Source of the DNA: Naegleria gruberi
Taxonomy: Eukaryota
Length of the DNA: 64,000 nucleotides
Assembly (NCBI GenBank): GCA_000004985.1
Contig: GG738886.1
Strand: one strand, 5' to 3'
Both the position numbers and the translations under genes were made by a program. Positions 1,979 through 51,796 of the stretch are shown here, piece after piece (within the stretch, counting starts at the first letter, position 1; every line of letters begins with the position of its first letter). The notes beneath the pieces were generated by a model. That model was not told where the DNA came from. It searched no databases and worked only from the letters and a program-made list of their open reading frames with translations.

Positions 1979-4900
1979 NNNNNNNNNNNNNNNNNNNNNN
2001 NNNNNNNNNNNNNNNNNNNNNNNNNNNNNNNNNNNNNNNNNNNNNNNNNNNNNNNNNNNNNNNNNNNNNNNNNNNNNNNNNNNNNNNNNNNNNNNNNNNN
2101 NNNNNNNNNNNNNNNNNNNNNNNNNNNNNNNNNNNNNNNNNNNNNNNNNNNNNNNNNNNNNNNNNNNNNNNNNNNNNNNNNNNNNNNNNNNNNNNNNNNN
2201 NNNNNNNNNNNNNNNNNNNNNNNNNNNNNNNNNNNNNNNNNNNNNNNNNNNNNNNNNNNNNNNNNNNNNNNNNNNNNNNNNNNNNNNNNNNNNNNNNNNN
2301 NNNNNNNNNNNNNNNNNNNNNNNNNNNNNNNNNNNNNNNNNNNNNNNNNNNNNNNNNNNNNNNNNNNNNNNNNNNNNNNNNNNNNNNNNNNNNNNNNNNN
2401 NNNNNNNNNNNNNNNNNNNNNNNNNNNNNNNNNNNNNNNNNNNNNNNNNNNNNNNNNNNNNNNNNNNNNNNNNNNNNNNNNNNNNNNNNNNNNNNNNNNN
2501 NNNNNNNNNNNNNNNNNNNNNNNNNNNNNNNNNNNNNNNNNNNNNNNNNNNNNNNNNNNNNNNNNNNNNNNNNNNNNNNNNNNNNNNNNNNNNNNNNNNN
2601 NNNNNNNNNNNNNNNNNNNNNNNNNNNNNNNNNNNNNNNNNNNNNNNNNNNNNNNNNNNNNNNNNNNNNNNNNNNNNNNNNNNNNNNNNNNNNNNNNNNN
2701 NNNNNNNNNNNNNNNNNNNNNNNNNNNNNNNNNNNNNNNNNNNNNNNNNNNNNNNNNNNNNNNNNNNNNNNNNNNNNNNNNNNNNNNNNNNNNNNNNNNN
2801 NNNNNNNNNNNNNNNNNNNNNNNNNNNNNNNNNNNNNNNNNNNNNNNNNNNNNNNNNNNNNNNNNNNNNNNNNNNNNNNNNNNNNNNNNNNNNNNNNNNN
2901 NNNNNNNNNNNNNNNNNNNNNNNNNNNNNNNNNNNNNNNNNNNNNNNNNNNNNNNNNNNNNNNNNNNNNNNNNNNNNNNNNNNNNNNNNNNNNNNNNNNN
3001 NNNNNNNNNNNNNNNNNNNNNNNNNNNNNNNNNNNNNNNNNNNNNNNNNNNNNNNNNNNNNNNNNNNNNNNNNNNNNNNNNNNNNNNNNNNNNNNNNNNN
3101 NNNNNNNNNNNNNNNNNNNNNNNNNNNNNNNNNNNNNNNNNNNNNNNNNNNNNNNNNNNNNNNNNNNNNNNNNNNNNNNNNNNNNNNNNNNNNNNNNNNN
3201 NNNNNNNNNNNNNNNNNNNNNNNNNNNNNNNNNNNNNNNNNNNNNNNNNNNNNNNNNNNNNNNNNNNNNNNNNNNNNNNNNNNNNNNNNNNNNNNNNNNN
3301 NNNNNNNNNNNNNNNNNNNNNNNNNNNNNNNNNNNNNNNNNNNNNNNNNNNNNNNNNNNNNNNNNNNNNNNNNNNNNNNNNNNNNNNNNNNNNNNNNNNN
3401 NNNNNNNNNNNNNNNNNNNNNNNNNNNNNNNNNNNNNNNNNNNNNNNNNNNNNNNNNNNNNNNNNNNNNNNNNNNNNNNNNNNNNNNNNNNNNNNNNNNN
3501 NNNNNNNNNNNNNNNNNNNNNNNNNNNNNNNNNNNNNNNNNNNNNNNNNNNNNNNNNNNNNNNNNNNNNNNNNNNNNNNNNNNNNNNNNNNNNNNNNNNN
3601 NNNNNNNNNNNNNNNNNNNNNNNNNNNNNNNNNNNNNNNNNNNNNNNNNNNNNNNNNNNNNNNNNNNNNNNNNNNNNNNNNNNNNNNNNNNNNNNNNNNN
3701 NNNNNNNNNNNNNNNNNNNNNNNNNNNNNNNNNNNNNNNNNNNNNNNNNNNNNNNNNNNNNNNNNNNNNNNNNNNNNNNNNNNNNNNNNNNNNNNNNNNN
3801 NNNNNNNNNNNNNNNNNNNNNNNNNNNNNNNNNNNNNNNNNNNNNNNNNNNNNNNNNNNNNNNNNNNNNNNNNNNNNNNNNNNNNNNNNNNNNNNNNNNN
3901 NNNNNNNNNNNNNNNNNNNNNNNNNNNNNNNNNNNNNNNNNNNNNNNNNNNNNNNNNNNNNNNNNNNNNNNNNNNNNNNNNNNNNNNNNNNNNNNNNNNN
4001 NNNNNNNNNNNNNNNNNNNNNNNNNNNNNNNNNNNNNNNNNNNNNNNNNNNNNNNNNNNNNNNNNNNNNNNNNNNNNNNNNNNNNNNNNNNNNNNNNNNN
4101 NNNNNNNNNNNNNNNNNNNNNNNNNNNNNNNNNNNNNNNNNNNNNNNNNNNNNNNNNNNNNNNNNNNNNNNNNNNNNNNNNNNNNNNNNNNNNNNNNNNN
4201 NNNNNNNNNNNNNNNNNNNNNNNNNNNNNNNNNNNNNNNNNNNNNNNNNNNNNNNNNNNNNNNNNNNNNNNNNNNNNNNNNNNNNNNNNNNNNNNNNNNN
4301 NNNNNNNNNNNNNNNNNNNNNNNNNNNNNNNNNNNNNNNNNNNNNNNNNNNNNNNNNNNNNNNNNNNNNNNNNNNNNNNNNNNNNNNNNNNNNNNNNNNN
4401 NNNNNNNNNNNNNNNNNNNNNNNNNNNNNNNNNNNNNNNNNNNNNNNNNNNNNNNNNNNNNNNNNNNNNNNNNNNNNNNNNNNNNNNNNNNNNNNNNNNN
4501 NNNNNNNNNNNNNNNNNNNNNNNNNNNNNNNNNNNNNNNNNNNNNNNNNNNNNNNNNNNNNNNNNNNNNNNNNNNNNNNNNNNNNNNNNNNNNNNNNNNN
4601 NNNNNNNNNNNNNNNNNNNNNNNNNNNNNNNNNNNNNNNNNNNNNNNNNNNNNNNNNNNNNNNNNNNNNNNNNNNNNNNNNNNNNNNNNNNNNNNNNNNN
4701 NNNNNNNNNNNNNNNNNNNNNNNNNNNNNNNNNNNNNNNNNNNNNNNNNNNNNNNNNNNNNNNNNNNNNNNNNNNNNNNNNNNNNNNNNNNNNNNNNNNN
4801 NNNNNNNNNNNNNNNNNNNNNNNNNNNNNNNNNNNNNNNNNNNNNNNNNNNNNNNNNNNNNNNNNNNNNNNNNNNNNNNNNNNNNNNNNNNNNNNNNNNN

Positions 4901-7900: not shown

Positions 7901-10900
7901 NNNNNNNNNNNNNNNNNNNNNNNNNNNNNNNNNNNNNNNNNNNNNNNNNNNNNNNNNNNNNNNNNNNNNNNNNNNNNNNNNNNNNNNNNNNNNNNNNNNN
8001 NNNNNNNNNNNNNNNNNNNNNNNNNNNNNNNNNNNNNNNNNNNNNNNNNNNNNNNNNNNNNNNNNNNNNNNNNNNNNNNNNNNNNNNNNNNNNNNNNNNN
8101 NNNNNNNNNNNNNNNNNNNNNNNNNNNNNNNNNNNNNNNNNNNNNNNNNNNNNNNNNNNNNNNNNNNNNNNNNNNNNNNNNNNNNNNNNNNNNNNNNNNN
8201 NNNNNNNNNNNNNNNNNNNNNNNNNNNNNNNNNNNNNNNNNNNNNNNNNNNNNNNNNNNNNNNNNNNNNNNNNNNNNNNNNNNNNNNNNNNNNNNNNNNN
8301 NNNNNNNNNNNNNNNNNNNNNNNNNNNNNNNNNNNNNNNNNNNNNNNNNNNNNNNNNNNNNNNNNNNNNNNNNNNNNNNNNNNNNNNNNNNNNNNNNNNN
8401 NNNNNNNNNNNNNNNNNNNNNNNNNNNNNNNNNNNNNNNNNNNNNNNNNNNNNNNNNNNNNNNNNNNNNNNNNNNNNNNNNNNNNNNNNNNNNNNNNNNN
8501 NNNNNNNNNNNNNNNNNNNNNNNNNNNNNNNNNNNNNNNNNNNNNNNNNNNNNNNNNNNNNNNNNNNNNNNNNNNNNNNNNNNNNNNNNNNNNNNNNNNN
8601 NNNNNNNNNNNNNNNNNNNNNNNNNNNNNNNNNNNNNNNNNNNNNNNNNNNNNNNNNNNNNNNNNNNNNNNNNNNNNNNNNNNNNNNNNNNNNNNNNNNN
8701 NNNNNNNNNNNNNNNNNNNNNNNNNNNNNNNNNNNNNNNNNNNNNNNNNNNNNNNNNNNNNNNNNNNNNNNNNNNNNNNNNNNNNNNNNNNNNNNNNNNN
8801 NNNNNNNNNNNNNNNNNNNNNNNNNNNNNNNNNNNNNNNNNNNNNNNNNNNNNNNNNNNNNNNNNNNNNNNNNNNNNNNNNNNNNNNNNNNNNNNNNNNN
8901 NNNNNNNNNNNNNNNNNNNNNNNNNNNNNNNNNNNNNNNNNNNNNNNNNNNNNNNNNNNNNNNNNNNNNNNNNNNNNNNNNNNNNNNNNNNNNNNNNNNN
9001 NNNNNNNNNNNNNNNNNNNNNNNNNNNNNNNNNNNNNNNNNNNNNNNNNNNNNNNNNNNNNNNNNNNNNNNNNNNNNNNNNNNNNNNNNNNNNNNNNNNN
9101 NNNNNNNNNNNNNNNNNNNNNNNNNNNNNNNNNNNNNNNNNNNNNNNNNNNNNNNNNNNNNNNNNNNNNNNNNNNNNNNNNNNNNNNNNNNNNNNNNNNN
9201 NNNNNNNNNNNNNNNNNNNNNNNNNNNNNNNNNNNNNNNNNNNNNNNNNNNNNNNNNNNNNNNNNNNNNNNNNNNNNNNNNNNNNNNNNNNNNNNNNNNN
9301 NNNNNNNNNNNNNNNNNNNNNNNNNNNNNNNNNNNNNNNNNNNNNNNNNNNNNNNNNNNNNNNNNNNNNNNNNNNNNNNNNNNNNNNNNNNNNNNNNNNN
9401 NNNNNNNNNNNNNNNNNNNNNNNNNNNNNNNNNNNNNNNNNNNNNNNNNNNNNNNNNNNNNNNNNNNNNNNNNNNNNNNNNNNNNNNNNNNNNNNNNNNN
9501 NNNNNNNNNNNNNNNNNNNNNNNNNNNNNNNNNNNNNNNNNNNNNNNNNNNNNNNNNNNNNNNNNNNNNNNNNNNNNNNNNNNNNNNNNNNNNNNNNNNN
9601 NNNNNNNNNNNNNNNNNNNNNNNNNNNNNNNNNNNNNNNNNNNNNNNNNNNNNNNNNNNNNNNNNNNNNNNNNNNNNNNNNNNNNNNNNNNNNNNNNNNN
9701 NNNNNNNNNNNNNNNNNNNNNNNNNNNNNNNNNNNNNNNNNNNNNNNNNNNNNNNNNNNNNNNNNNNNNNNNNNNNNNNNNNNNNNNNNNNNNNNNNNNN
9801 NNNNNNNNNNNNNNNNNNNNNNNNNNNNNNNNNNNNNNNNNNNNNNNNNNNNNNNNNNNNNNNNNNNNNNNNNNNNNNNNNNNNNNNNNNNNNNNNNNNN
9901 NNNNNNNNNNNNNNNNNNNNNNNNNNNNNNNNNNNNNNNNNNNNNNNNNNNNNNNNNNNNNNNNNNNNNNNNNNNNNNNNNNNNNNNNNNNNNNNNNNNN
10001 NNNNNNNNNNNNNNNNNNNNNNNNNNNNNNNNNNNNNNNNNNNNNNNNNNNNNNNNNNNNNNNNNNNNNNNNNNNNNNNNNNNNNNNNNNNNNNNNNNNN
10101 NNNNNNNNNNNNNNNNNNNNNNNNNNNNNNNNNNNNNNNNNNNNNNNNNNNNNNNNNNNNNNNNNNNNNNNNNNNNNNNNNNNNNNNNNNNNNNNNNNNN
10201 NNNNNNNNNNNNNNNNNNNNNNNNNNNNNNNNNNNNNNNNNNNNNNNNNNNNNNNNNNNNNNNNNNNNNNNNNNNNNNNNNNNNNNNNNNNNNNNNNNNN
10301 NNNNNNNNNNNNNNNNNNNNNNNNNNNNNNNNNNNNNNNNNNNNNNNNNNNNNNNNNNNNNNNNNNNNNNNNNNNNNNNNNNNNNNNNNNNNNNNNNNNN
10401 NNNNNNNNNNNNNNNNNNNNNNNNNNNNNNNNNNNNNNNNNNNNNNNNNNNNNNNNNNNNNNNNNNNNNNNNNNNNNNNNNNNNNNNNNNNNNNNNNNNN
10501 NNNNNNNNNNNNNNNNNNNNNNNNNNNNNNNNNNNNNNNNNNNNNNNNNNNNNNNNNNNNNNNNNNNNNNNNNNNNNNNNNNNNNNNNNNNNNNNNNNNN
10601 NNNNNNNNNNNNNNNNNNNNNNNNNNNNNNNNNNNNNNNNNNNNNNNNNNNNNNNNNNNNNNNNNNNNNNNNNNNNNNNNNNNNNNNNNNNNNNNNNNNN
10701 NNNNNNNNNNNNNNNNNNNNNNNNNNNNNNNNNNNNNNNNNNNNNNNNNNNNNNNNNNNNNNNNNNNNNNNNNNNNNNNNNNNNNNNNNNNNNNNNNNNN
10801 NNNNNNNNNNNNNNNNNNNNNNNNNNNNNNNNNNNNNNNNNNNNNNNNNNNNNNNNNNNNNNNNNNNNNNNNNNNNNNNNNNNNNNNNNNNNNNNNNNNN

Positions 10901-13900
10901 NNNNNNNNNNNNNNNNNNNNNNNNNNNNNNNNNNNNNNNNNNNNNNNNNNNNNNNNNNNNNNNNNNNNNNNNNNNNNNNNNNNNNNNNNNNNNNNNNNNN
11001 NNNNNNNNNNNNNNNNNNNNNNNNNNNNNNNNNNNNNNNNNNNNNNNNNNNNNNNNNNNNNNNNNNNNNNNNNNNNNNNNNNNNNNNNNNNNNNNNNNNN
11101 NNNNNNNNNNNNNNNNNNNNNNNNNNNNNNNNNNNNNNNNNNNNNNNNNNNNNNNNNNNNNNNNNNNNNNNNNNNNNNNNNNNNNNNNNNNNNNNNNNNN
11201 NNNNNNNNNNNNNNNNNNNNNNNNNNNNNNNNNNNNNNNNNNNNNNNNNNNNNNNNNNNNNNNNNNNNNNNNNNNNNNNNNNNNNNNNNNNNNNNNNNNN
11301 NNNNNNNNNNNNNNNNNNNNNNNNNNNNNNNNNNNNNNNNNNNNNNNNNNNNNNNNNNNNNNNNNNNNNNNNNNNNNNNNNNNNNNNNNNNNNNNNNNNN
11401 NNNNNNNNNNNNNNNNNNNNNNNNNNNNNNNNNNNNNNNNNNNNNNNNNNNNNNNNNNNNNNNNNNNNNNNNNNNNNNNNNNNNNNNNNNNNNNNNNNNN
11501 NNNNNNNNNNNNNNNNNNNNNNNNNNNNNNNNNNNNNNNNNNNNNNNNNNNNNNNNNNNNNNNNNNNNNNNNNNNNNNNNNNNNNNNNNNNNNNNNNNNN
11601 NNNNNNNNNNNNNNNNNNNNNNNNNNNNNNNNNNNNNNNNNNNNNNNNNNNNNNNNNNNNNNNNNNNNNNNNNNNNNNNNNNNNNNNNNNNNNNNNNNNN
11701 NNNNNNNNNNNNNNNNNNNNNNNNNNNNNNNNNNNNNNNNNNNNNNNNNNNNNNNNNNNNNNNNNNNNNNNNNNNNNNNNNNNNNNNNNNNNNNNNNNNN
11801 NNNNNNNNNNNNNNNNNNNNNNNNNNNNNNNNNNNNNNNNNNNNNNNNNNNNNNNNNNNNNNNNNNNNNNNNNNNNNNNNNNNNNNNNNNNNNNNNNNNN
11901 NNNNNNNNNNNNNNNNNNNNNNNNNNNNNNNNNNNNNNNNNNNNNNNNNNNNNNNNNNNNNNNNNNNNNNNNNNNNNNNNNNNNNNNNNNNNNNNNNNNN
12001 NNNNNNNNNNNNNNNNNNNNNNNNNNNNNNNNNNNNNNNNNNNNNNNNNNNNNNNNNNNNNNNNNNNNNNNNNNNNNNNNNNNNNNNNNNNNNNNNNNNN
12101 NNNNNNNNNNNNNNNNNNNNNNNNNNNNNNNNNNNNNNNNNNNNNNNNNNNNNNNNNNNNNNNNNNNNNNNNNNNNNNNNNNNNNNNNNNNNNNNNNNNN
12201 NNNNNNNNNNNNNNNNNNNNNNNNNNNNNNNNNNNNNNNNNNNNNNNNNNNNNNNNNNNNNNNNNNNNNNNNNNNNNNNNNNNNNNNNNNNNNNNNNNNN
12301 NNNNNNNNNNNNNNNNNNNNNNNNNNNNNNNNNNNNNNNNNNNNNNNNNNNNNNNNNNNNNNNNNNNNNNNNNNNNNNNNNNNNNNNNNNNNNNNNNNNN
12401 NNNNNNNNNNNNNNNNNNNNNNNNNNNNNNNNNNNNNNNNNNNNNNNNNNNNNNNNNNNNNNNNNNNNNNNNNNNNNNNNNNNNNNNNNNNNNNNNNNNN
12501 NNNNNNNNNNNNNNNNNNNNNNNNNNNNNNNNNNNNNNNNNNNNNNNNNNNNNNNNNNNNNNNNNNNNNNNNNNNNNNNNNNNNNNNNNNNNNNNNNNNN
12601 NNNNNNNNNNNNNNNNNNNNNNNNNNNNNNNNNNNNNNNNNNNNNNNNNNNNNNNNNNNNNNNNNNNNNNNNNNNNNNNNNNNNNNNNNNNNNNNNNNNN
12701 NNNNNNNNNNNNNNNNNNNNNNNNNNNNNNNNNNNNNNNNNNNNNNNNNNNNNNNNNNNNNNNNNNNNNNNNNNNNNNNNNNNNNNNNNNNNNNNNNNNN
12801 NNNNNNNNNNNNNNNNNNNNNNNNNNNNNNNNNNNNNNNNNNNNNNNNNNNNNNNNNNNNNNNNNNNNNNNNNNNNNNNNNNNNNNNNNNNNNNNNNNNN
12901 NNNNNNNNNNNNNNNNNNNNNNNNNNNNNNNNNNNNNNNNNNNNNNNNNNNNNNNNNNNNNNNNNNNNNNNNNNNNNNNNNNNNNNNNNNNNNNNNNNNN
13001 NNNNNNNNNNNNNNNNNNNNNNNNNNNNNNNNNNNNNNNNNNNNNNNNNNNNNNNNNNNNNNNNNNNNNNNNNNNNNNNNNNNNNNNNNNNNNNNNNNNN
13101 NNNNNNNNNNNNNNNNNNNNNNNNNNNNNNNNNNNNNNNNNNNNNNNNNNNNNNNNNNNNNNNNNNNNNNNNNNNNNNNNNNNNNNNNNNNNNNNNNNNN
13201 NNNNNNNNNNNNNNNNNNNNNNNNNNNNNNNNNNNNNNNNNNNNNNNNNNNNNNNNNNNNNNNNNNNNNNNNNNNNNNNNNNNNNNNNNNNNNNNNNNNN
13301 NNNNNNNNNNNNNNNNNNNNNNNNNNNNNNNNNNNNNNNNNNNNNNNNNNNNNNNNNNNNNNNNNNNNNNNNNNNNNNNNNNNNNNNNNNNNNNNNNNNN
13401 NNNNNNNNNNNNNNNNNNNNNNNNNNNNNNNNNNNNNNNNNNNNNNNNNNNNNNNNNNNNNNNNNNNNNNNNNNNNNNNNNNNNNNNNNNNNNNNNNNNN
13501 NNNNNNNNNNNNNNNNNNNNNNNNNNNNNNNNNNNNNNNNNNNNNNNNNNNNNNNNNNNNNNNNNNNNNNNNNNNNNNNNNNNNNNNNNNNNNNNNNNNN
13601 NNNNNNNNNNNNNNNNNNNNNNNNNNNNNNNNNNNNNNNNNNNNNNNNNNNNNNNNNNNNNNNNNNNNNNNNNNNNNNNNNNNNNNNNNNNNNNNNNNNN
13701 NNNNNNNNNNNNNNNNNNNNNNNNNNNNNNNNNNNNNNNNNNNNNNNNNNNNNNNNNNNNNNNNNNNNNNNNNNNNNNNNNNNNNNNNNNNNNNNNNNNN
13801 NNNNNNNNNNNNNNNNNNNNNNNNNNNNNNNNNNNNNNNNNNNNNNNNNNNNNNNNNNNNNNNNNNNNNNNNNNNNNNNNNNNNNNNNNNNNNNNNNNNN

Positions 13901-15500
13901 NNNNNNNNNNNNNNNNNNNNNNNNNNNNNNNNNNNNNNNNNNNNNNNNNNNNNNNNNNNNNNNNNNNNNNNNNNNNNNNNNNNNNNNNNNNNNNNNNNNN
14001 NNNNNNNNNNNNNNNNNNNNNNNNNNNNNNNNNNNNNNNNNNNNNNNNNNNNNNNNNNNNNNNNNNNNNNNNNNNNNNNNNNNNNNNNNNNNNNNNNNNN
14101 NNNNNNNNNNNNNNNNNNNNNNNNNNNNNNNNNNNNNNNNNNNNNNNNNNNNNNNNNNNNNNNNNNNNNNNNNNNNNNNNNNNNNNNNNNNNNNNNNNNN
14201 NNNNNNNNNNNNNNNNNNNNNNNNNNNNNNNNNNNNNNNNNNNNNNNNNNNNNNNNNNNNNNNNNNNNNNNNNNNNNNNNNNNNNNNNNNNNNNNNNNNN
14301 NNNNNNNNNNNNNNNNNNNNNNNNNNNNNNNNNNNNNNNNNNNNNNNNNNNNNNNNNNNNNNNNNNNNNNNNNNNNNNNNNNNNNNNNNNNNNNNNNNNN
14401 NNNNNNNNNNNNNNNNNNNNNNNNNNNNNNNNNNNNNNNNNNNNNNNNNNNNNNNNNNNNNNNNNNNNNNNNNNNNNNNNNNNNNNNNNNNNNNNNNNNN
14501 NNNNNNNNNNNNNNNNNNNNNNNNNNNNNNNNNNNNNNNNNNNNNNNNNNNNNNNNNNNNNNNNNNNNNNNNNNNNNNNNNNNNNNNNNNNNNNNNNNNN
14601 NNNNNNNNNNNNNNNNNNNNNNNNNNNNNNNNNNNNNNNNNNNNNNNNNNNNNNNNNNNNNNNNNNNNNNNNNNNNNNNNNNNNNNNNNNNNNNNNNNNN
14701 NNNNNNNNNNNNNNNNNNNNNNNNNNNNNNNNNNNNNNNNNNNNNNNNNNNNNNNNNNNNNNNNNNNNNNNNNNNNNNNNNNNNNNNNNNNNNNNNNNNN
14801 NNNNNNNNNNNNNNNNNNNNNNNNNNNNNNNNNNNNNNNNNNNNNNNNNNNNNNNNNNNNNNNNNNNNNNNNNNNNNNNNNNNNNNNNNNNNNNNNNNNN
14901 NNNNNNNNNNNNNNNNNNNNNNNNNNNNNNNNNNNNNNNNNNNNNNNNNNNNNNNNNNNNNNNNNNNNNNNNNNNNNNNNNNNNNNNNNNNNNNNNNNNN
15001 NNNNNNNNNNNNNNNNNNNNNNNNNNNNNNNNNNNNNNNNNNNNNNNNNNNNNNNNNNNNNNNNNNNNNNNNNNNNNNNNNNNNNNNNNNNNNNNNNNNN
15101 NNNNNNNNNNNNNNNNNNNNNNNNNNNNNNNNNNNNNNNNNNNNNNNNNNNNNNNNNNNNNNNNNNNNNNNNNNNNNNNNNNNNNNNNNNNNNNNNNNNN
15201 NNNNNNNNNNNNNNNNNNNNNNNNNNNNNNNNNNNNNNNNNNNNNNNNNNNNNNNNNNNNNNNNNNNNNNNNNNNNNNNNNNNNNNNNNNNNNNNNNNNN
15301 NNNNNNNNNNNNNNNNNNNNNNNNNNNNNNNNNNNNNNNNNNNNNNNNNNNNNNNNNNNNNNNNNNNNNNNNNNNNNNNNNNNNNNNNNNNNNNNNNNNN
15401 NNNNNNNNNNNNNNNNNNNNNNNNNNNNNNNNNNNNNNNNNNNNNNNNNNNNNNNNNNNNNNNNNNNNNNNNNNNNNNNNNNNNNNNNNNNNNNNNNNNN
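1979..15500. other. Assembly gap: 13,522 consecutive N
   Basis: Uninterrupted run of n. The three giant 'ORFs' spanning it in the track are X-translation artifacts. Confidence 0.99.
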
Positions 15501-26300: not shown

Positions 26301-26773
26301 TTTTTGTTTTTTTGATTGTGTTCAAGAAGTGAAACATATCCCAGTATTTAAAGATATGAAAAGAATAGTATGTTGATTTTTTTGGTATAGAAGATGAATG
26401 ATTTTCCAAAAAGAGAGTGGCCACAGATTTTGGACATTGTTCATTTGGTCTTTGTTAATCCATGCGGATTATTGAACAAGAACAGATGGAAAGAACTTCA
26501 ATGGTTGGATTGTGCATAAAGATGTGGAATATCTTGGAATGCAAAAAATTCCAATGTTTGAAGGACTGTAAAGAAATACGGCTGGTTACAAAAAAGTCCA
26601 TTTAATTTACAAATCTCTATTCAAAGATTGGTATAAGTGATCAAAGAAACAATAAAGAGTATTGAGAAGAATTTCTGGTACCTTGAAAATATTGAAATTC
26701 ATCTGATACAGTATTCTTGATATTAATTGTGCTGGTATTCGCTTGGAACATTAAAAGCAAAAGTAAAAGGAAA

Positions 26774-26856
26774 TGCCAGCGGTGGGGTTCGAACCCACGA
26801 ACCCATTCGGGATAAGATCTTAAGTCTTACGCATTTGACCACTCTGCTACGCGGGC
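26774..26856 (-). tRNA. tRNA-Leu (anticodon UAA), type II long variable arm; copy 1 of 3
   Basis: Cloverleaf seen directly. Acceptor GCCCGCG/CGCTGGC has one C:U mismatch. D-arm GCA-GAGTGGTCAAA-TGC. Anticodon stem TAAGA/TCTTA with loop CTTAAGA. Variable hairpin CCC-GAAT-GGG. T-arm GTGGG-TTCGAAC-CCCAC. A-box TAGCAGAGTGG and B-box GGTTCGAACCC are present. A 3' T-run follows. Confidence 0.9.
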
Positions 26857-26917
26857 TGGTATTCATTAAGCTTTTGTATATCTTAAATATGCATTTACTT
26901 GTAACACTTTGATTCAT

Positions 26918-28072
26918 TTAATAGACTTTTATTTCCGCCATTACCTTCTTGTCAATAGATGCATCCTCAATCATTACTTCCTCACTCATCAATAATCCAA
27001 ATAATAGAGGGAATTGAATGTAACATCTGGCATCAGTTTTGCAACTTAGCTCAAAATATTGAACTTTCAAATCTTTCAATGAAATACCACCATCAATAAT
27101 GGGTACAAACTGTTGGAGGAGATTTTCAATTCGACTCATTTTCACCTTTCTTACTAAATCTCTCTTCAATCCAATAATTATCATACTTGACCTTTCACAT
27201 TGTAAATAATCATTCCAAGGAGTATTTTGAGGTTTTTCACTATTATTGTCAATAAGTTCCTTCATTCGATCAAAAGACTCTTCATCACTCAAATCAAAGC
27301 AATAAATGATTGTCTTGGAACCTCTTTTATAGGCTGATGCAATTGATTGAAACCTTGCATGTCCACCAGTATCCCATAATTGAATTTTGCAATGTAAATT
27401 ATTATTATACTCATAACCTTTTGAATAAAACTCAACTCCAATGGTTTGAGAATATTTTGAATCAAATAATCTTGTTGAATCTGAAAATAATTTAGCAAGT
27501 TCAGATTTACCACATTGATCGTTTCCCATTAAAACTTGTTTACAAATCATAGAGTTGGGTACATCTGATTTTTCTTTGTATGAACTTAAAATAGTTTGTA
27601 TAAAGTGATGATAATATACAATACTATTGATTGGTGATTGCATAATTGGTTTAAAATACATGAAAATCTCATTGTAATCATCCAACAATCTTCCTCTCCA
27701 TAAAAAACTATTTTGAGTCCAATAATATTTGAAATTTTTGGAAACTCGTTGTAATTTGAAAAGTTCATGATTCATTAAAAATCCCAAAATACAAATAAAT
27801 AATTCATCAGGTAATTCCTTTTCAAAAATTGAACAATTTTCATAATTATAGACTGCATATTTCTCAACACTCTTCAGATCACTTTTTGATTCGATTAAAT
27901 CATGAAAAATCTTGTTTGGAAACATTTTAGGATTTGCTAATTTGTTGATGAGAGATGATTTTTTAAGTTGTTCAACACGATCCGAATTAATGAAAGCCAT
28001 TGAAGATGATGATGTAGATGAGGAGCAAACAGGTGGCGGTGGTGCAATTTTCTGAGGTTGTGATTGACCCAT
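26918..28072 (-). CDS. F-box + Rab-like small GTPase domain protein, copy A (384 aa). The catalytic Gln is replaced by His.
   Basis: F-box LPDELFICILGFLMNHELFKLQRVSKNF. GTPase motifs: G1 GNDQCGKSEL; switch-I TIGVEF; G3 WDTGGHARF (Rab WDTAGQERF); G4 GLKRDL (degenerate NKxD); G5 SCK. True ATG at 28072. Confidence 0.8.
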   Translation of the reverse strand: MGQSQPQKIAPPPPVCSSSTSSSSMAFINSDRVEQLKKSSLINKLANPKMFPNKIFHDLIESKSDLKSVEKYAVYNYENCSIFEKELPDELFICILGFLMNHELFKLQRVSKNFKYYWTQNSFLWRGRLLDDYNEIFMYFKPIMQSPINSIVYYHHFIQTILSSYKEKSDVPNSMICKQVLMGNDQCGKSELAKLFSDSTRLFDSKYSQTIGVEFYSKGYEYNNNLHCKIQLWDTGGHARFQSIASAYKRGSKTIIYCFDLSDEESFDRMKELIDNNSEKPQNTPWNDYLQCERSSMIIIGLKRDLVRKVKMSRIENLLQQFVPIIDGGISLKDLKVQYFELSCKTDARCYIQFPLLFGLLMSEEVMIEDASIDKKVMAEIKVY

Positions 28073-28134
28073 TTTTTTATCTTTGGAAATTAATTTGTCA
28101 ATTGTTAGATGGAACTTAATATATTAATTCTGGT
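28073..28134 (-). promoter_or_regulatory. Conserved about 60-nt upstream block shared by both F-box/Rab copies
   Basis: Near-identical to 50383..50446 (accagaattaatat[a/t]tt.aagttccat.ctaacaat..acaaattaatttccaaagataaaaaaatg). Confidence 0.4.
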
Positions 28135-31816: not shown

Positions 31817-31828
31817 CACTAGAAATTT
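31817..31828. repeat. Left terminal inverted repeat CACTAGAAATTT
   Basis: Exact reverse complement of 36707..36718. Confidence 0.75.
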
Positions 31829-31831
31829 GCA

Positions 31832-31848
31832 GTAGAAAATGATGATTT
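31832..31848. repeat. Subterminal inverted repeat GTAGAAAATGATGATTT (left copy; partner at 36652..36668)
   Basis: 17/17 identity with the reverse complement of 36652..36668. Confidence 0.7.
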
Positions 31849-31983
31849 AGCTTTGCGACCAATCAAAAATTGGATTGGGTTGAAAAAAAATCGGGACGAA
31901 CTGTTGCGGGTTTTGTATTGGTCAGAGTAACCGATTGAATTAGGTGCATCACACGTGTTTAATAAATTAATATATTATTAAAT

Positions 31984-33012
31984 TTATTGGTTTTGTTGTT
32001 TATGTTTATTCAATGATTCCTTTTGATAGTCATCATAGAAGTCCATTACTTTACAAGCCTTGTGAGCAAAATAAACAAGTCCAAGTCTGGTTCCTGAAGT
32101 AATAGGAGCAACTTGATGTTTATATTTGTTGCCTTTGAACAATAGCAAATCACCAGGTTTAACAAATACCTTACAATTTTGCTCTGGAAACTCCAAATAC
32201 CCTTCTTTCTCATCATAATCTCCCAAGTAAAATAAAACACTAGGTGTAGCATCACGGGTGTCCTTGTGAGCATTCTTGATTCTATGTTTCTCTATCTGTG
32301 GTTCTAAATAGTTAAAAGCAGTGGATGGATAAATACAATTATTCAAAATATGATATGGGTGTGGTAACGATGTCAAATAATTAATTGTTCTTGGAGAGAG
32401 TATTTCCAATGCAGCAGTAATTGTTTCATCTAGCATTGGATTTACAATTCCAATTAAATATTCTCCCAACTGTGTCTTTAGATCTGATGTAATATAATTC
32501 ATAGGCATGTTATTCTCCAAAACTCCACTGTATCCATGATTTTTCTTTCTTGCCTCTTGGATTTTTAATAAATTTTCATTAAATTCCTGAATAATATCCT
32601 TTTTCAACACTCCCGGTAAGAAAGCAAGATCTATTTGACCATCTTTCGAAATAATAAAATGTGGACTTGTTATTTTAGTAAACCACTTTTCCGTGTTAAA
32701 TATTAAATTACTATTACTATAATCAACATTAAATTTCCGTTTTAATTTCTTTAATAATCCTTTAAGTCTGGTTTTTTTATAAAGACCACCCTTTTCACCT
32801 TTTTTCACAGTCAATGATTCCTGCAAATTCACCGACACGGGTCCTAAGGAATGCGTATCAGTTAAAAGGCTAGTAGATGGCTTTTGTCTTTTGTTATCAT
32901 TTTTGTTGTTGTTATTGTTGTTCCTTCTTTTCGTTATTGTTGTTATTGATGTTGTTGTTCTTGATGTTTGTTGATGACATTTTTTATTGTTATTTCTTGT
33001 TGACCGTTCTTG
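31984..33012 (-). CDS. 2-oxoglutarate/Fe(II)-dependent dioxygenase (double-stranded beta-helix) with an H-K-D iron motif (TET/JBP-like or AlkB-like). The open frame has no initiator ATG and overlaps the transposase 3' end in the +1 frame.
   Basis: Motifs AHKDTRD ... VKPGDLLLFKGNKYKHQV ... GTRLGLVYF give the HxD...H...R facial triad with a 50-aa spacer. The frame is open from 33012 to the stop at 31984. The first in-frame ATG is at 32508; the track 'M' at 32838 is GTG. A good acceptor tgaatttgcag|GAA lies at about 32819. Confidence 0.7.
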   Translation of the reverse strand, partial: QERSTRNNNKKCHQQTSRTTTSITTITKRRNNNNNNKNDNKRQKPSTSLLTDTHSLGPVSVNLQESLTVKKGEKGGLYKKTRLKGLLKKLKRKFNVDYSNSNLIFNTEKWFTKITSPHFIISKDGQIDLAFLPGVLKKDIIQEFNENLLKIQEARKKNHGYSGVLENNMPMNYITSDLKTQLGEYLIGIVNPMLDETITAALEILSPRTINYLTSLPHPYHILNNCIYPSTAFNYLEPQIEKHRIKNAHKDTRDATPSVLFYLGDYDEKEGYLEFPEQNCKVFVKPGDLLLFKGNKYKHQVAPITSGTRLGLVYFAHKACKVMDFYDDYQKESLNKHKQQNQ

Positions 33013-35812
33013 TCAACGCAGCAAACGCTGCTGTTGTTCTTCTGACTTCAGACACAGCTTTCAATTTTCCTCTTGTTCTTTGCTGTTCTTCATCTACATG
33101 TTCAGCAGCAGTCTTGTTAGTTGGGATGGTGTTTACCTTGTTTGTGGAAATGTGGTATTCTTCTAAATCTGCTGGTACAACAACAGTTCCTTGACAACAT
33201 TGGTGTGGTTGGAAAAGTCTTGTATCTGCTTCTCTCTCGCATAGCTGTTGAAGAATAACTTCATCATTATTCAATTTTACAGTATAATCTTCCTTCAATT
33301 CTTCCAATCTCTTTTTCGTTAACGACCGTGGATGTGGTAAAAGGAAGGTGTTTGGTAGTATTGTTGTTAACAAGAGTATTCTAAGTTTTCGTAGTATCAC
33401 TTGAGCAAGTAATTTCCCCTCCAATCCTAATGAAATGATGGTTCTCTCTTCAACAGGCTGAATACTAAAAACCTTCTTCAATAAATCTTTGTTTTCATCA
33501 ATACCAAAATCCATTCCACTTGGAAGAACAACACCATTGGAACTAAACATTTGTGAATAATCTTTGGTGTTCGAAAATAAGGAATCATGGTAGGTGTGAA
33601 GATGACCACCACCTTTGCTAGAGCCGAAGTTAATCGTGTCCAATTCTTCAATATGACTACTCTCGAAAGCCTGTGTTTCGAAGAGTTTAACATGACCAAC
33701 TCGTTCTTTCAATGGGATGATATGTTTCACCAAAATGTGTGCATACCATGACTTTCCAGGAAATCCTTGTACAGTAGTGATATATAATTTCCAGAATTTT
33801 GAAAGAGAATCGGAAAGAACATCCATTGGCTTATCATAATCAATGTTGTGAAATACCTGTTTCAAACTATGCCATAAATCCTTTGTTTTCTCAGATTCAA
33901 AGAATGGAGCCATTACATTAATGTTTTCTAAAAGAGTATTACAAGTATTGCCATGCAAAAATATTCTCACTTCGTTCCAATCCTCATCCTCCACCTTATT
34001 AATATATTCTAAACCCTTAATTTTTGTAACGGCAGTCCAAAATTTCTCCTTTTCTTTCATTCCACTCAAAGTAATTCTTAGTATATTTTCGCATAATCTT
34101 TCCTTTGCATGAAGTACACAAATAATAATATTACTCGCTGGTAATCCCAATATACATCCAAGCTCTGTTAGTGTTCGTGGTCTGTGATGTTTGGTGCAAA
34201 TTGGGAATGTGATATTACAAAATGGACACCAACTATCCTGTTTAACTCCAGGACAAACTTCACCGAGAGCTTTCAAGTCCATCGTAAGGAAAACATCTAC
34301 ACTGCAATGATACGATCCAATAGTAATACCATTCTTTCTTATAATCTCAATCTCCTTTTTAAAATGCTCAGCTACATGTTTGATTTCTCCTTCATCTCCC
34401 TTCCAAATGGCCAGTGGTGCACATACAGCTCTGGACTGACCGGTTCCAAAACATTTACTGTTAATAACAGTAATATATATCGTTGTCAATTTAGAATTTG
34501 CTGCATAATCCAAATTCAATGCAACAATTAAATCTTTTGTTTCCTTTTTGTCTTGTTCACATAAAGGCCGTCCCTTATCTTTCATCCAACCAATCCACTT
34601 CTTATGTTGCAGAGCGTAACAACATAGTGTTGGGAAAATTGAATGGTATATTAATTTACCCTCTCCTTCTAATGTCAACACTTTCAAATTGAAAAAGTCT
34701 GAACAAAGCAAATCAGTTGATGACTGAGCATGTTGAAGAATACTTGATGAAGAGAGATCATTAACATTTCCTTCATTTCTAAACATGTCAACTGTTTTGT
34801 TGGAAACCTGTTGTCTATTCTTCACCACCACTTGCTTAAGGATTGTTGTATTAATTGTTGAGCTATATGTAGGTTTTCTTTTCTTCTTTTTGGGTGTTTC
34901 TTTTCCAGATTGTTGTACCTTTTCTATTTTTCTTTTTTGAGATTCTTCCCATTGTTTTCCCTTGATTTTTGAAATTTCTACTCTCTCATTCTCAAACACC
35001 TTGTCAGTGGAAGTGGTTTTTTTGGTTTGATGGGATGTTTCTTGTTTCGAAATAAATCCCTCTTCATGTAATCTCTTTTTATCCAATAGATCATTCCTTA
35101 GAAGGATTCCAAGAAATGAATAAATGTTAGTAAACCCCTCCATCTTTGCTAATAAATCATGACCACCTAATCTCATCAATAATCTTTCACCTTTTTTGTT
35201 TTTGGAAGTTATTTTCGAATAATCACTTTTCTTGTACTTGAATGAATTTGTTAAAATGTTGTCCTTCATCATGGTCAACCCAAAATGGTCCTTAATATCC
35301 ATATAATACCTCAAACCATCTGGTTCCATGTATGTCTTATCGCTGGTAGATCCTTTTCCAATGATGTTTTCAATTGGTTTGGAATTTTTAGAATAATATT
35401 GATTTATTATTCTTGTGTTCCATTGGTCAACCATATTTGGAGAGACAATATTTTCTTGGCCTGAATTTGAGGTAGATGATATTGGAATGGTTTGAGATGG
35501 AGGAGGGTAAGAAAACATTGTTTGTGCAACAGTATGTGAAGTAGTTGATGGTTGTGAGTGGAATGAATTTTGATGAAACATGGGCGGAAATTGTGTTGAG
35601 TATGGAAAGATTGTTTGGGGAGGAAATGTTGGCGTATTGTAGTTAAAATAGGGATTGTGAAAGGGATTTATAAATGATTGGTCTTGTGATGGTTGTGGCT
35701 GTGATTCGATAATTGGTGTTTGTGACGAATATGTTGTGCTAATGTTATCCAGGTCCAATACAGAAGTCCAACCACTCTCCGATTGACAATCATCATGATG
35801 GCAATATGTCAT
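32990..35812 (-). CDS. Transposase, TNP2 / Transposase_21-like (CACTA-Plavaka superfamily), 940 aa, with a Q/P/S-rich N-terminus
   Basis: True ATG at 35812. Core segment ...LIVALNLDYAANSK...SYHCSVDVFLTMDLKALGEVCPGVKQDSWCPFCNITFPICTKHH matches the conserved DFPA..G..SGWS....ACP.C block of TNP2-family transposases. Codon usage (CGG, GGG, CAG, ACG, GAG) departs from neighbouring host genes. It sits between the TIRs. Confidence 0.6.
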   Translation of the reverse strand: MTYCHHDDCQSESGWTSVLDLDNISTTYSSQTPIIESQPQPSQDQSFINPFHNPYFNYNTPTFPPQTIFPYSTQFPPMFHQNSFHSQPSTTSHTVAQTMFSYPPPSQTIPISSTSNSGQENIVSPNMVDQWNTRIINQYYSKNSKPIENIIGKGSTSDKTYMEPDGLRYYMDIKDHFGLTMMKDNILTNSFKYKKSDYSKITSKNKKGERLLMRLGGHDLLAKMEGFTNIYSFLGILLRNDLLDKKRLHEEGFISKQETSHQTKKTTSTDKVFENERVEISKIKGKQWEESQKRKIEKVQQSGKETPKKKKRKPTYSSTINTTILKQVVVKNRQQVSNKTVDMFRNEGNVNDLSSSSILQHAQSSTDLLCSDFFNLKVLTLEGEGKLIYHSIFPTLCCYALQHKKWIGWMKDKGRPLCEQDKKETKDLIVALNLDYAANSKLTTIYITVINSKCFGTGQSRAVCAPLAIWKGDEGEIKHVAEHFKKEIEIIRKNGITIGSYHCSVDVFLTMDLKALGEVCPGVKQDSWCPFCNITFPICTKHHRPRTLTELGCILGLPASNIIICVLHAKERLCENILRITLSGMKEKEKFWTAVTKIKGLEYINKVEDEDWNEVRIFLHGNTCNTLLENINVMAPFFESEKTKDLWHSLKQVFHNIDYDKPMDVLSDSLSKFWKLYITTVQGFPGKSWYAHILVKHIIPLKERVGHVKLFETQAFESSHIEELDTINFGSSKGGGHLHTYHDSLFSNTKDYSQMFSSNGVVLPSGMDFGIDENKDLLKKVFSIQPVEERTIISLGLEGKLLAQVILRKLRILLLTTILPNTFLLPHPRSLTKKRLEELKEDYTVKLNNDEVILQQLCEREADTRLFQPHQCCQGTVVVPADLEEYHISTNKVNTIPTNKTAAEHVDEEQQRTRGKLKAVSEVRRTTAAFAALTRTVNKK

Positions 35813-35880
35813 TATGATATTTCTTTTTGAAATATTTGAAAAAACCGTTACAGAAATAATTTAATTAAATGTAAATTTTA

Positions 35881-36567
35881 TTAGAAGAAATGGAATTCAT
35901 CTTCATCATCGTACTTTATCTTCGTATCATAAGCAAAATGCATCGTGACTTCACCAGATTCAGTATCAAAAATAAAGGAAATGTTCTTCACTTGTAAAAG
36001 ATATTGGGTAACAATGTAGTTGTCCTCTATCTGGGTGGCACTAGTAATGACTTGTTGACCCCAGTTATCAAATATATCCAATACAGGAAGATGAGATGTA
36101 AATCTATATCCAATACAAGGAACCTTATACTTAATGCCATGTCTTGTAACTGTTCTATCAGAGTGGAAAAAGGTAGCACCTAACATGCTTTGAAACATGA
36201 CTTGAAATACACCAAGTTCAACAGAGCCACATCCAACGTAACTTCTTTTATCAATACCTCCCAACTTCAGCAATCTATTGATTTTCACTCGAGCACAATT
36301 AGCCAATACTTGGAATGATCTGGCAGCAAAATCTTTCTCACTTTCGCATAAATCGTCATATGTGGTGGAAAGAGGTTGGATTCTTGGTAACCCGTGTTCC
36401 ATGATGATGTCTTTGAAGTCATATGAAGAAGTTTCCTCCTTTCGTTGTTGTTGGATTTGGAGGTCTACATGGTTGTTTGTTGGTGAAGTAATTGGCACAT
36501 CAAACATATCGATATCACCTTCATCCAAGATGGTCTCAGTGATATATACTTGTTGTTGTGTATTCAT
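35881..36567 (-). CDS. Transposon-internal 228-aa hypothetical protein (possible accessory/DNA-binding ORF)
   Basis: True ATG at 36567, 140 nt inside the right TIR. It ends 68 nt before the transposase ATG. No family recognised (ARVKINRLLKLGGIDKRSYVGCGSVELGVFQ...). Confidence 0.45.
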   Translation of the reverse strand: MNTQQQVYITETILDEGDIDMFDVPITSPTNNHVDLQIQQQRKEETSSYDFKDIIMEHGLPRIQPLSTTYDDLCESEKDFAARSFQVLANCARVKINRLLKLGGIDKRSYVGCGSVELGVFQVMFQSMLGATFFHSDRTVTRHGIKYKVPCIGYRFTSHLPVLDIFDNWGQQVITSATQIEDNYIVTQYLLQVKNISFIFDTESGEVTMHFAYDTKIKYDDEDEFHFF

Positions 36568-36706
36568 TGTGTTTGTTGGTTTTTTTGTTGTTGTTGTTGG
36601 TAGGAGAGAGTGATAGGGTCGTTCATTTTATAGTCTTTTTTTTTGTAAGAAAAATCATCATTTTCTACCAGGCTTAGCTTGGCCAGGGCATTTTTAGCTT
36701 TGATGT

Positions 36707-36718
36707 AAATTTCTAGTG
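36707..36718. repeat. Right terminal inverted repeat AAATTTCTAGTG
   Basis: Exact reverse complement of 31817..31828. Confidence 0.75.
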
Positions 36719-50132: not shown

Positions 50133-50232
50133 TTTTTTGTTGGATAAAGTTCGTTTGAACTTGGTACTTTTACAAATTACAAGATAAGGTTATTGTATTA
50201 TATAATCATAGAAAAATCCAAAATGAACACCA

Positions 50233-50315
50233 GCCCGCGTAGCAGAGTGGTCAAATGCGTAAGACTTAAGATCTTATCCCGAATGGGTTCGTGGGTTCGA
50301 ACCCCACCGCTGGCA
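50233..50315 (+). tRNA. tRNA-Leu (UAA), copy 2
   Basis: Identical 83-nt sequence to copy 1, followed by TTTCCTTTT. Confidence 0.9.
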
Positions 50316-50446
50316 TTTCCTTTTACCTTTGACAGAAAGAAATGGAACTTGAGACTTAATGTATCTTATATGATGTCTATTGACCAGAATTAATATTTTA
50401 AAGTTCCATTCTAACAATTTACAAATTAATTTCCAAAGATAAAAAA

Positions 50447-51595
50447 ATGGGTCAATCACAACCTCAGAAAATTGCACCACCACCACCTGTTTGCTCCTCA
50501 TCTACATCATCATCTTCAATGCCTTTCATTAATTCGGATCGTGTTGAACAACTTAAAAAATCATCTCTCATCAACAAGTTGGCAAATCCTAAAATGTTTC
50601 CAAACAAGATTTTTCATGATTTAATCGAATCAAAAAGTGATCTGAAGAGTGTTGAGAAATATGCAGTTTATAATTATGAAAATTGTTCAATTTTTGAAAA
50701 GGAATTGCCAGATGAATTATTTATTTGTATTTTGGGATTTTTAATGAATCATGAACTTTTCAAATTACAACGAGTTTCCAAAAATTTCAAATATTATTGG
50801 ACTCAAAATAGTTTTTTATGGAGAGGAAGATTGTTGGATGATTACAATAAGATTTTCATGTATTTTAAACCAATTATGCAATCACCAAACAATAGTATTG
50901 TATATTATCATCACTTTATACAAACAATTTTAAGTTCGTACAAAGAAAAATCAGATGTACCCAACTCTATGATTTGTAAACAAGTTTTAATGGGAATGGA
51001 TCAATGTGGTAAATCTGAACTAGCTAAATTATTTTCAGATTCAACAAGATTATTTGATTCAAAATATTCTCGAACCATTGGAGTTGAGTTTTATTCAAAA
51101 GGTTATGAGTATAATAATAATTTACATTGCAAAATTCAATTATGGGATACTGGTGGACATGCAAGGTTTCAATCAATTGCATCAGCCTATAAAAGAGGTT
51201 CCAAGACTATCATTTATTGCTTTGATTTGAGTGATGAAGAGTCTTTTGATCGAATGAAGGAACTTATTGACAATAATAGTGAAAAACCTCAAAATACTCC
51301 TTGGAATGATTATTTACAATGTGAAAGGTTAAGTATGATAATTATTGGATTGAAGAGAGATTTAGTAAGAAAGGTGAAAATGAGTCGAATTGAAAATCTC
51401 CTCCAACAGTTTGTACCCATTATTGATGGTATTTCATTGAAAGATTTGAAAGTTCAATATTTTGAGCTAAGTTGTAAAACTGATGCCAGATGTTACATTC
51501 AATTCCCTCTATTATTTGGATTATTGATGAGTGAGGAAGTAATGATTGAGGATGCATCTATTGACAAGAAGGTAATGGCGGAAATAAAAACTTGA
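50447..51595 (+). CDS. F-box + Rab-like small GTPase domain protein, copy B (382 aa, TGA stop)
   Basis: Same domain order and motifs as copy A, with 7 aa substitutions and a 1-codon indel (IIDGISLKD vs IIDGGISLKD). True ATG. Confidence 0.8.
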   Translation: MGQSQPQKIAPPPPVCSSSTSSSSMPFINSDRVEQLKKSSLINKLANPKMFPNKIFHDLIESKSDLKSVEKYAVYNYENCSIFEKELPDELFICILGFLMNHELFKLQRVSKNFKYYWTQNSFLWRGRLLDDYNKIFMYFKPIMQSPNNSIVYYHHFIQTILSSYKEKSDVPNSMICKQVLMGMDQCGKSELAKLFSDSTRLFDSKYSRTIGVEFYSKGYEYNNNLHCKIQLWDTGGHARFQSIASAYKRGSKTIIYCFDLSDEESFDRMKELIDNNSEKPQNTPWNDYLQCERLSMIIIGLKRDLVRKVKMSRIENLLQQFVPIIDGISLKDLKVQYFELSCKTDARCYIQFPLLFGLLMSEEVMIEDASIDKKVMAEIKT

Positions 51596-51604
51596 TGAGC
51601 ACCA

Positions 51605-51687
51605 GCCCGCGTAGCAGAGTGGTCAAATGCGTAAGACTTAAGATCTTATCCCGAATGGGTTCGTGGGTTCGAACCCCACCGCTGGCA
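51605..51687 (+). tRNA. tRNA-Leu (UAA), copy 3
   Basis: Identical to copies 1 and 2. It starts 9 nt after the stop of F-box/Rab copy B. It shares about 37 nt of 3' flank with copy 2 (tttcctttt.c.tttg.cagaaagaaatggaacttga). Confidence 0.9.
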
Positions 51688-51796
51688 TTTCCTTTTTCTT
51701 TGCCAGAAAGAAATGGAACTTGATCGAATATATTGCTAAATAATTGCTTTTATATTCAATTTTTGAAATGCAAGTGTGAAAATCCATTCCAAAAAA

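Follow-up and report, generated by a model that had tools for sequence, protein, structure and literature searches.

A probable cut-and-paste transposon of Naegleria gruberi with CACTA ends, a RAG1-like predicted transposase fold and an NgTet1-type dioxygenase gene

DNA transposons of fungi that carry genes of the TET/JBP dioxygenase family were reportedly described by Iyer et al. in 2014. All published TET-carrying elements are fungal; they occur in three lineages of fungi and in eleven of transposons, among which EnSpm, Plavaka and ESTA belong to the CMCT clade, and escape from silencing is the role that has been proposed for them (PMC12730594). The CMCT clade was named by Kojima for the group comprising EnSpm/CACTA, Mirage, Chapaev, Transib, Plavaka, ESTA, Lanisha and RAG1, whose transposases share C(2)C and H(3-4)H signature motifs, found between the second aspartate (D) and the glutamate (E) of their DDE catalytic triad; its elements have 5′-CA..TG-3′ termini and generate target-site duplications of 2-5 bp (PMC12730594). 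Here we analyse a 64,000-nucleotide stretch of Naegleria gruberi NEG-M (contig GG738886.1 of assembly GCA_000004985.1; hereafter the window), in which positions 31817..36718 make up one whole element of 4,902 bp. Its genes, orfA, orfB and a Tet-like gene, are read from the minus strand, with the 5′ end at 36718 and the 3′ end at 31817. The interval is probably a copy of a low-copy, cut-and-paste transposon family of the CMCT clade that is found in Naegleria and related amoeboflagellates, with orfB as its transposase, orfA as a partner and an NgTet1-type dioxygenase as cargo.

An earlier note on this DNA had proposed a terminal-inverted-repeat DNA transposon with CACTA ends; this proposal holds, and the sequence features observed in the window are confirmed at their positions. 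The perfect 12-bp terminal inverted repeat (CACTAGAAATTT) is exact at both ends, as is the 17-bp subterminal inverted repeat (GTAGAAAATGATGATTT) near them, and the interval is filled by three minus-strand open reading frames (ORFs) of 228, 940 and 284 aa, which are orfA, orfB and the Tet-like ORF. The subterminal motif TTTAGCTTTG, described as shared by the two ends, does occur near both of them, but its copies at 31846 and 36693 lie on the same strand and form a direct, not an inverted, repeat. In shuffled sequence, two matches to the GTAGAAAATGATGATTT pair arose in 0 of 100 trials, while among 1000 shuffles of the two intergenic segments that hold the repeats, 22 yielded a perfect inverted repeat 12 bp or more in length and one yielded a repeat of 17 bp or more. 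The repeats of the window alone are thus unlikely to have arisen by chance, although they are not decisive. They are taken as genuine element ends because they are conserved in related elements: the refuting outcome named in the earlier note, repeats found at the ends of no homologous copy, did not materialize, as both terminus and subterminal motifs recur elsewhere. The core of the 5′ subterminal arm, AAATGATGATTT, is kept at the 5′ ends of the N. lovaniensis element (L001) and of an environmental element (L003), and GAAAATGATG, within the 3′ arm, is kept at the 3′ end of L001. Elements whose transposases are 44-56% identical have in common the AAATGATGATTT motif, a 5′ TTACAA-A(9)-TATAAAATG block and a 3′ GACCAATCAAAA / ATTGG motif. 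The 5′ GTAGAAAATGATGATTT arm is a candidate binding site for the transposase or for an accessory protein.

The relatives of the element were reached through its proteins. A protein search with orfB returned three relatives, namely one hypothetical protein from N. lovaniensis (56% identical) and two proteins from environmental assemblies, with no N. gruberi protein among the matches. A homologue of orfA of about 230 aa lies directly upstream of the orfB homologue in all three relative loci, and CACTA-type inverted repeats bound every orfB-relative locus but the most divergent one (L002). The N. lovaniensis element spans 4,034 bp (L001 6965..10998) and is bounded by CACTACAACTTAC; the environmental element spans 6,326 bp (L003 437..6762) and is bounded by CACTAGAGAGTAC. 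Two further contigs (L020, L021) hold an element that is 84-87% identical to that of the window and ends in the identical 12-bp terminus CACTAGAAATTT at a different flank. With orfA as query, nine homologues were recovered, one of them a second paralogue in N. gruberi on another scaffold, of 707 kb (NAEGRDRAFT_63160, 64% identity); the search also revealed a 1,049-bp derivative that contains orfA only and is bounded by CACTAGAGAATACC / CACTACAGAATACC (L005 320-1368, L006 310-1358, L007 85-1133). Across three independent data sets this derivative shows 100% identity; two different sequences flank it on the left, and in two contigs the sequence ends exactly at its right terminus. Neighbouring genes also differ at each locus: L001 has RecQ, PALP and an ABC transporter, L022 an amidase and L002 an LRR protein. 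Together, conserved ends at unrelated sites, an identical derivative at two sites and differing neighbours show a mobile family with functional ends; the evidence for mobility consists of the family at different flanks across genomes and of the orfA-only derivative at two sites. In L003 the transposase gene is split into two ORFs by a single in-frame TAA (3151-3153) where all relatives have lysine, and this Tet-bearing environmental element looks like a recently inactivated copy.

Two side observations concern these relatives. The 1,049-bp derivative keeps an intact orfA in the absence of a transposase gene, which is unusual for a non-autonomous element. The environmental sample that yielded L003 and L005 contains another contig (L022 1-2372), which bears an orfA homologue with a degenerate C-terminus directly downstream of the host amidase gene, with no orfB nearby; it is probably a decayed insertion.

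The 940-aa ORF had been read in the earlier note as a TNP2/Plavaka-type transposase. Its identity as a DDE transposase stands on an iterated profile, conserved motifs and predicted fold, while membership in TNP2/Plavaka is not supported, the PF02992 profile that the note had put forward as a check giving no match to this ORF even at E<=1. Conserved motifs in the homologues of orfB comprise LNL-D435, TM-D512-LKALG, C529-P-x-C532, CVLH, H692-x4-H697 and FETQAF-E717, and D435, D512, C529-P-F-C532, H692-ILVK-H697 and E717 are kept in every homologue that spans the respective position (homologue P0003 stops just past the C(2)C motif). The protein thus bears the DDE residues together with the C(2)C and H(4)H motifs by which the CMCT clade is defined. 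Direct phmmer comparison of orfB with the PDB returned noise only. Among 1.8 billion representative proteins, a profile of the Naegleria-type core picked out 92 relatives, and a profile built from 66 of these sequences (A4) matched RAG1 (E 7.6e-8), the Helicoverpa Transib transposase (8e-6) and amphioxus RAG1L (5e-5) in the PDB, with RAG1 residues D708, C727/C730, H937/H942 and E962 aligned to D512, the C(2)C motif, the H(4)H motif and E717, respectively. Homology of orfB with RAG1 needs iteration or a wider alignment together with predicted structure, since narrower profiles miss RAG1. Comparison of the predicted structure with known ones scored 19.9 for RAG1 (406 residues aligned), 19.5 for BbRAG1L, 11.3 for the P element transposase, 11.2 for HzTransib and 7.1 for Hermes, and all 30 Foldseek matches of the model at E<=1e-3 are RAG1 or Transib. 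The predicted structure has the three-dimensional fold of the RAG1 core; in the model, the catalytic residues fall in the first long core strand (E104-113), at the junction of strand E181-187 with the next helix and in helix H390-405, which we read, in turn, as beta-1, the end of beta-4 and the catalytic helix in an RNase H fold. The iterated profile, the conserved motifs and the predicted RAG1-like fold place orfB in the CMCT clade taken broadly, and not demonstrably in CACTA/En-Spm proper.

Most of the remote relatives of orfB have no Pfam match. Two of them (P0037 and P0042) carry a C-terminal Ulp1/SENP protease domain (Pfam Peptidase_C48, E 7e-16 and 2e-7, respectively). Fusions with Ulp1 are known from other DNA transposon superfamilies.

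Which side of the clade the element belongs to can be argued in both directions. It is possible, if somewhat doubtful, that the element is real but represents a Transib/RAG1-like or a separate CMCT lineage instead of CACTA/En-Spm/Plavaka, its CACTA ends being just the 5′-CA(C) terminus shared by the clade. The significant structure and profile matches of orfB are indeed RAG1, BbRAG1L and HzTransib only; the Pfam RAG1 family (PF12940) is matched by five of 66 remote relatives (best E 1.9e-7), against a single weak match to PF02992 Transposase_21 (P0039, E 0.0079, under the cut-off), and none by orfB itself; and there is no 3-bp duplication. RAG1 and Transib may, however, be the best match for any member of the clade, since no CACTA, Mirage or Chapaev transposase structure was among the PDB matches, and a 5-bp duplication is lacking as well. 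The En/Spm terminus is CACTACAAG, which the CACTA[GC]A termini of the family (CACTACAAC in L001) resemble, while they are unlike the heptamer of Transib and of the recombination signal sequences. The TNP2 motif is DFPAYG...ACPxC, and the D-x-x-A-x-G...C-P-x-C block of orfB resembles it; two proteins and subterminal repeats also recall En/Spm. We lean to the CACTA side for orfB on account of the termini of the element and of this block, while a simple assignment to CACTA/En-Spm has against it the lack of a PF02992 match and of a 3-bp duplication.

The third gene of the element was confirmed as a TET/JBP-family dioxygenase. In a phmmer comparison the 284-aa ORF matched NgTet1 (4LT5_A) with an E of 9e-94 over residues 15-281 of 284, and it is 52% identical to NgTet1 (UniProt TET1_NAEGR) over 93% of its length. 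Among the catalytic motifs kept are HKD 191-193, the YKH histidine 241, TRLGLVYFAHK 250-260 and the NxMPxNY loop, in which we take the H-x-D...H iron ligands and the 2-oxoglutarate arginine to be those of the NgTet1 structure (4LT5). The Pfam check proposed for this ORF failed, PF12851 Tet_JBP giving 12.2 bits (E 0.11) where the cut-off is 34.9; NgTet1 itself has no precomputed Pfam domain, and this model seems to lack sensitivity for the Naegleria branch. The protein collection searched contained no identical protein, and the ORF appears to be an unannotated paralogue of NgTet1. In L003 the inverted repeats likewise enclose a Tet gene (5709-6695), 46-48% identical, which is on the opposite strand and reads inward from the 3′ end, with the L003 copy of the 3′ CCAAT motif upstream of it. 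A Tet gene is therefore enclosed by the terminal repeats of a transposase-encoding element in both the window and L003; since it is missing from the N. lovaniensis element, Tet is recurrent but dispensable cargo of the family.

The element had been called intact-looking, which is true of orfA and orfB, but the Tet gene lacks an in-frame start codon. Its catalytic ORF begins with GTG, and its frame is open for 334 codons with neither a stop nor an ATG. Homology with NgTet1 extends 5′ of the GTG (TSLLTDTHSLGPVSVN vs TANLTQTHPNGPVCVN), and the only nearby ATG, at 32980, is shifted by one frame and meets a stop after 22 codons; it begins 10 nt past the final base of the stop codon of orfB, which leaves a gap of 9 nt. 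A rescue of the frame by splicing was considered and rejected, as no plausible GT..AG intron lies between this ATG and the domain. There is either a 1-nt frame disruption within the first ~25 codons of Tet or an assembly indel in an A-rich low-complexity tract.

The broken frame lends itself to another explanation, in which the transposon is real but the Tet gene of the window copy is a decaying, non-functional captured host gene that has no part in the biology of the element. We consider this rather unlikely. Consistent with decay are the catalytic ORF without an in-frame ATG, the sole ATG being out of frame, the lack of an identical protein in the collection searched, the N. lovaniensis relative devoid of Tet and the differing orientation of the gene in the two Tet-bearing elements. 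Yet the 334 codons are free of stops and every catalytic and substrate-contact motif checked is kept relative to NgTet1; the break falls in an A-rich tract of low complexity, a plausible place for an assembly indel; and the presence of Tet in two elements whose transposases are just 44% identical argues for retention.

orfA has no Pfam match, and direct phmmer comparison with the PDB gave noise only; it is predicted to be a small alpha+beta protein, for which the PDB gave no match. Between the window and L020/L021 the ratio of nonsynonymous to synonymous substitution (dN/dS) of orfA is ~0.25, indicating purifying selection, and the 151-nt non-coding 5′ end of the element is better conserved than the synonymous sites of orfA (proportion of synonymous differences, pS, about 0.24). 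Within this comparison, a 59-nt block bearing a TATAAAA motif (Table 1) is likely the promoter for orfA. Given its fixed place upstream of orfB, the purifying selection and its survival in the 1,049-bp derivative, orfA may be an accessory protein with an end-binding or regulatory role, perhaps binding the ends like TnpA of En/Spm. The genes of the element are closely spaced, with spacers of 66 nt (35813-35880) and 9 nt (32981-32989) in the window, 36 nt in L001 (7965-8000) and 15 nt in L002 (890-904); such short spacers suggest that the genes share a transcript or that splicing joins orfA to orfB.

Several results weigh against the reading of the interval as a mobile CMCT element with a functional Tet gene. 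No target-site duplication of 2-8 bp, with boundaries exact or shifted by 1-3 nt, was found in any of the four complete copies, in agreement with the earlier note, which had seen no 3-bp duplication in the window. The 3-bp flanks are TTC/ATT (window), TGA/TCA (L001), TAC/AAA (L003) and CCT/TCT (L005), and agreement over 4-bp flanks (3/4, 1/4, 2/4 and 3/4) is not significant. L003 and L005 are short-read metagenome contigs, possibly chimeric across the repeat, but the copies of the window and L001 should be sound; because the clade makes duplications of 2-5 bp, their absence is the main misfit to a standard CMCT DDE element. No Pfam family, including PF02992 and PF12940, matched orfB at E<=1, whether the whole 940 aa or the core was used; the Naegleria-only profile (A2) found nothing in the PDB, RAG1 included, and a strict 26-sequence profile (A5) reached RAG1 at an E of about 0.1 only. 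To these are added the Tet gene without an in-frame ATG beside an intact orfA and orfB, the N. lovaniensis element without Tet, and the 66-nt and 9-nt gaps, which leave the expression of orfB and Tet unexplained. Finally, one copy in the window and one other annotated orfA paralogue in N. gruberi give no sign of recent amplification.

That the interval is not mobile at all, but a host cluster of a domesticated RAG1-like gene, its partner and a Tet paralogue flanked by chance short inverted repeats, is very improbable. The single copy in the window, the lacking target-site duplication, the few copies among annotated N. gruberi proteins and the purifying selection on orfA speak for it; against it are CACTA and subterminal motifs at the exact ends of homologues beside unrelated genes, identical 1,049-bp derivatives at two sites, contigs that stop at the terminus, a nonsense mutation in one copy and variable cargo.

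For the transposon reading, a mechanism can be proposed. As a zinc-binding DDE enzyme of the RNase H fold with a RAG1-like predicted structure, orfB would recognize the 5′-CACTA termini and the subterminal AAATGATGATTT and CCAAT motifs, possibly with orfA, and would, if currently active, excise the element and reinsert it elsewhere by cut and paste. orfA, always just upstream of orfB, would be its obligate partner. The Tet protein, as an Fe(II)/2-oxoglutarate dioxygenase, would oxidize 5-methylcytosine on the element or on target or nearby DNA. By analogy with the fungal TET-carrying transposons, this activity would most likely counteract methylation-dependent silencing of the element. N. gruberi is said to encode a DNA methyltransferase homologue, as reported by Hashimoto et al. 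in 2014, who reportedly also described eight Tet-like genes in this species (NgTet1-8).

Set beside the described systems, the element shares with the fungal TET-carrying transposons a Tet/JBP gene between inverted repeats, 5′-CA..TG-3′ termini, a third accessory ORF and a cargo found in some relatives only. It differs from them in its heterolobosean amoeboflagellate host, in a Tet of the NgTet1 type and not of the fungal PU, AG or PE types, in a transposase without a Pfam match, in the absence of a 2-5-bp duplication, and in being compact (4.9 kb) and low-copy; orfA and orfB matched no Pfam family of KDZ transposases or CxC zinc clusters, Plavaka having no dedicated model against which it could be tested. 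Like the plant En/Spm (CACTA) elements, it has 5′-CACTA termini of 12-13 bp, inverted subterminal motifs, two element-encoded proteins and, following the second catalytic aspartate of orfB, a D-x-x-A-x-G ... C-P-x-C block; unlike them, it shows neither a PF02992 match nor a 3-bp duplication, its orfA is dissimilar to TnpA/TNP1, and its genes are separate contiguous ORFs instead of alternatively spliced products. From RAG1, ProtoRAG RAG1L and Transib, orfB is set apart by a sequence identity of 11-14% and by the lack of a RAG2-like propeller partner, and the element by CACTAG/CACTAC termini in place of a CACAGTG-like heptamer with a nonamer and by the lack of a 5-bp duplication. As for NgTet1 (PDB 4LT5, 5CG8), from the same species, the iron ligands, the arginine and the NxMPxNY loop are kept in the Tet of the window, which is nevertheless a distinct paralogue, cut off from its start codon and located inside a transposon. 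In the searchable literature, which excludes Repbase, Iyer 2014 and Hashimoto 2014, no TET-carrying transposon outside fungi and no link between Naegleria Tet genes and transposons was found. Relative to the fungal partnership, the eukaryotic supergroup, the Tet subfamily, the transposase lineage undetected by Pfam and the partner protein are new.

Table 1. Features of the element in the window of N. gruberi
Feature	Position	Strand	Remarks
5′ terminal inverted repeat CACTAGAAATTT	36707..36718	-	exact, 12 bp; identical 12-mer ends L020 and L021 at a different flank
5′ subterminal inverted-repeat arm GTAGAAAATGATGATTT, 17 bp	36652..36668	-	exact; 38 nt inside the right terminus
5′ subterminal block, 59 nt	36615..36673	-	100% identity with L020/L021; holds the subterminal arm and the TATAAAA motif (36624-36632)
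orfA, 228 aa (NAEGRDRAFT_80703 / XP_002674107.1)	35881..36567	-	conserved, putative accessory protein
orfB, 940 aa, DDE transposase	32990..35812	-	predicted RAG1/Transib-like fold; D435, D512, C529-x2-C532, H692-x4-H697, E717; unannotated in N. gruberi
Tet-like dioxygenase gene	31984..32980	-	catalytic-domain ORF 32838..31984 (284 aa); ATG candidate at 32980
3′ subterminal motif GCGACCAATCAAAAATTGGATTGG (CCAAT / ATTGG)	31855..31878	+	GACCAAT(C/A/G)AAAA kept in the 3′ ends of L001, L003 and L005
3′ subterminal inverted-repeat arm GTAGAAAATGATGATTT, 17 bp	31832..31848	+	exact; 3 nt inside the left terminus
3′ terminal inverted repeat CACTAGAAATTT	31817..31828	+	exact; L001, L003 and L005 likewise have CACTA[GC]A termini

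As regards the surroundings, seven of ten long ORFs of the window that were tested are exact annotated N. gruberi proteins (EFC41290..EFC41364, on a 358,576-bp scaffold) and an eighth falls in the EFC41368 cluster. Of the two flanking genes named in the earlier note, the upstream propeller is borne out by a match to the Rax2 beta-propeller domain (E 2e-11), while the downstream ORF gave vWA matches below threshold only. No second copy of the element was found within the window, and its G+C content is similar to that of its surroundings. Codon usage was claimed to be unlike that of the host; compared with 11 host ORFs, the synonymous share in the element is 6% vs 1% for CGG, 7% vs 1% for GGG, 21% vs 10% for CAG and 8% vs 1% for ACG, a shift toward G-ending codons that is real but modest. 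The element lies between two copies of a Rab-family GTPase gene that are inverted relative to each other (26758-28134 and 50222-51723; ~98% identical over ~1.2 kb, 22 kb apart). The second copy is bracketed by inverted repeats of ~130 bp (50223-50352 vs 51595-51723, 97%), one arm of which also lies beside the first copy (26758-26870), and the duplicate may be a repeat-bounded, gene-carrying unit. Positions 1979-15500 are a 13.5-kb run of N (scaffold gap), and the "giant ORFs" of ~4,500-4,800 aa on both strands at 1.5-16 kb were discarded as artefacts of this run. Metagenome scans were equally discarded: 414 pattern matches for orfB yielded no confirmed case, and the 12 loci matching the terminus pattern CACTASAGAATACCMMCMC were all chance matches.

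Taken further, the findings prompt a broader proposal, plausible but tentative and somewhat more apt to be wrong than right, in which a Naegleria family with a RAG1-type fold and CACTA ends took up an NgTet1-type dioxygenase independently of fungi, uses it against silencing and integrates without duplicating its target, and in which the expansion of the NgTet family came about maybe through such elements, NgTet1 possibly included. The NgTet1 gene (XP_002667965.1) lies on a 1,110-bp contig. The proposal is testable, as Naegleria can be cultured and the biochemistry of NgTet1 is established. The family provides the RAG1/Transib/CACTA transposase clade, from which V(D)J recombination arose, with a protist branch, and is relevant to research on transposons, DNA modification and the ancestry of RAG1. 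If the proposal is true, Tet-carrying transposons would not be peculiar to fungi, recruitment of 5-methylcytosine oxidases would be a recurrent counter-silencing strategy across eukaryotes, and the NgTet family, to which the structural and biotechnological model enzyme NgTet1 belongs, would gain a genomic origin story.

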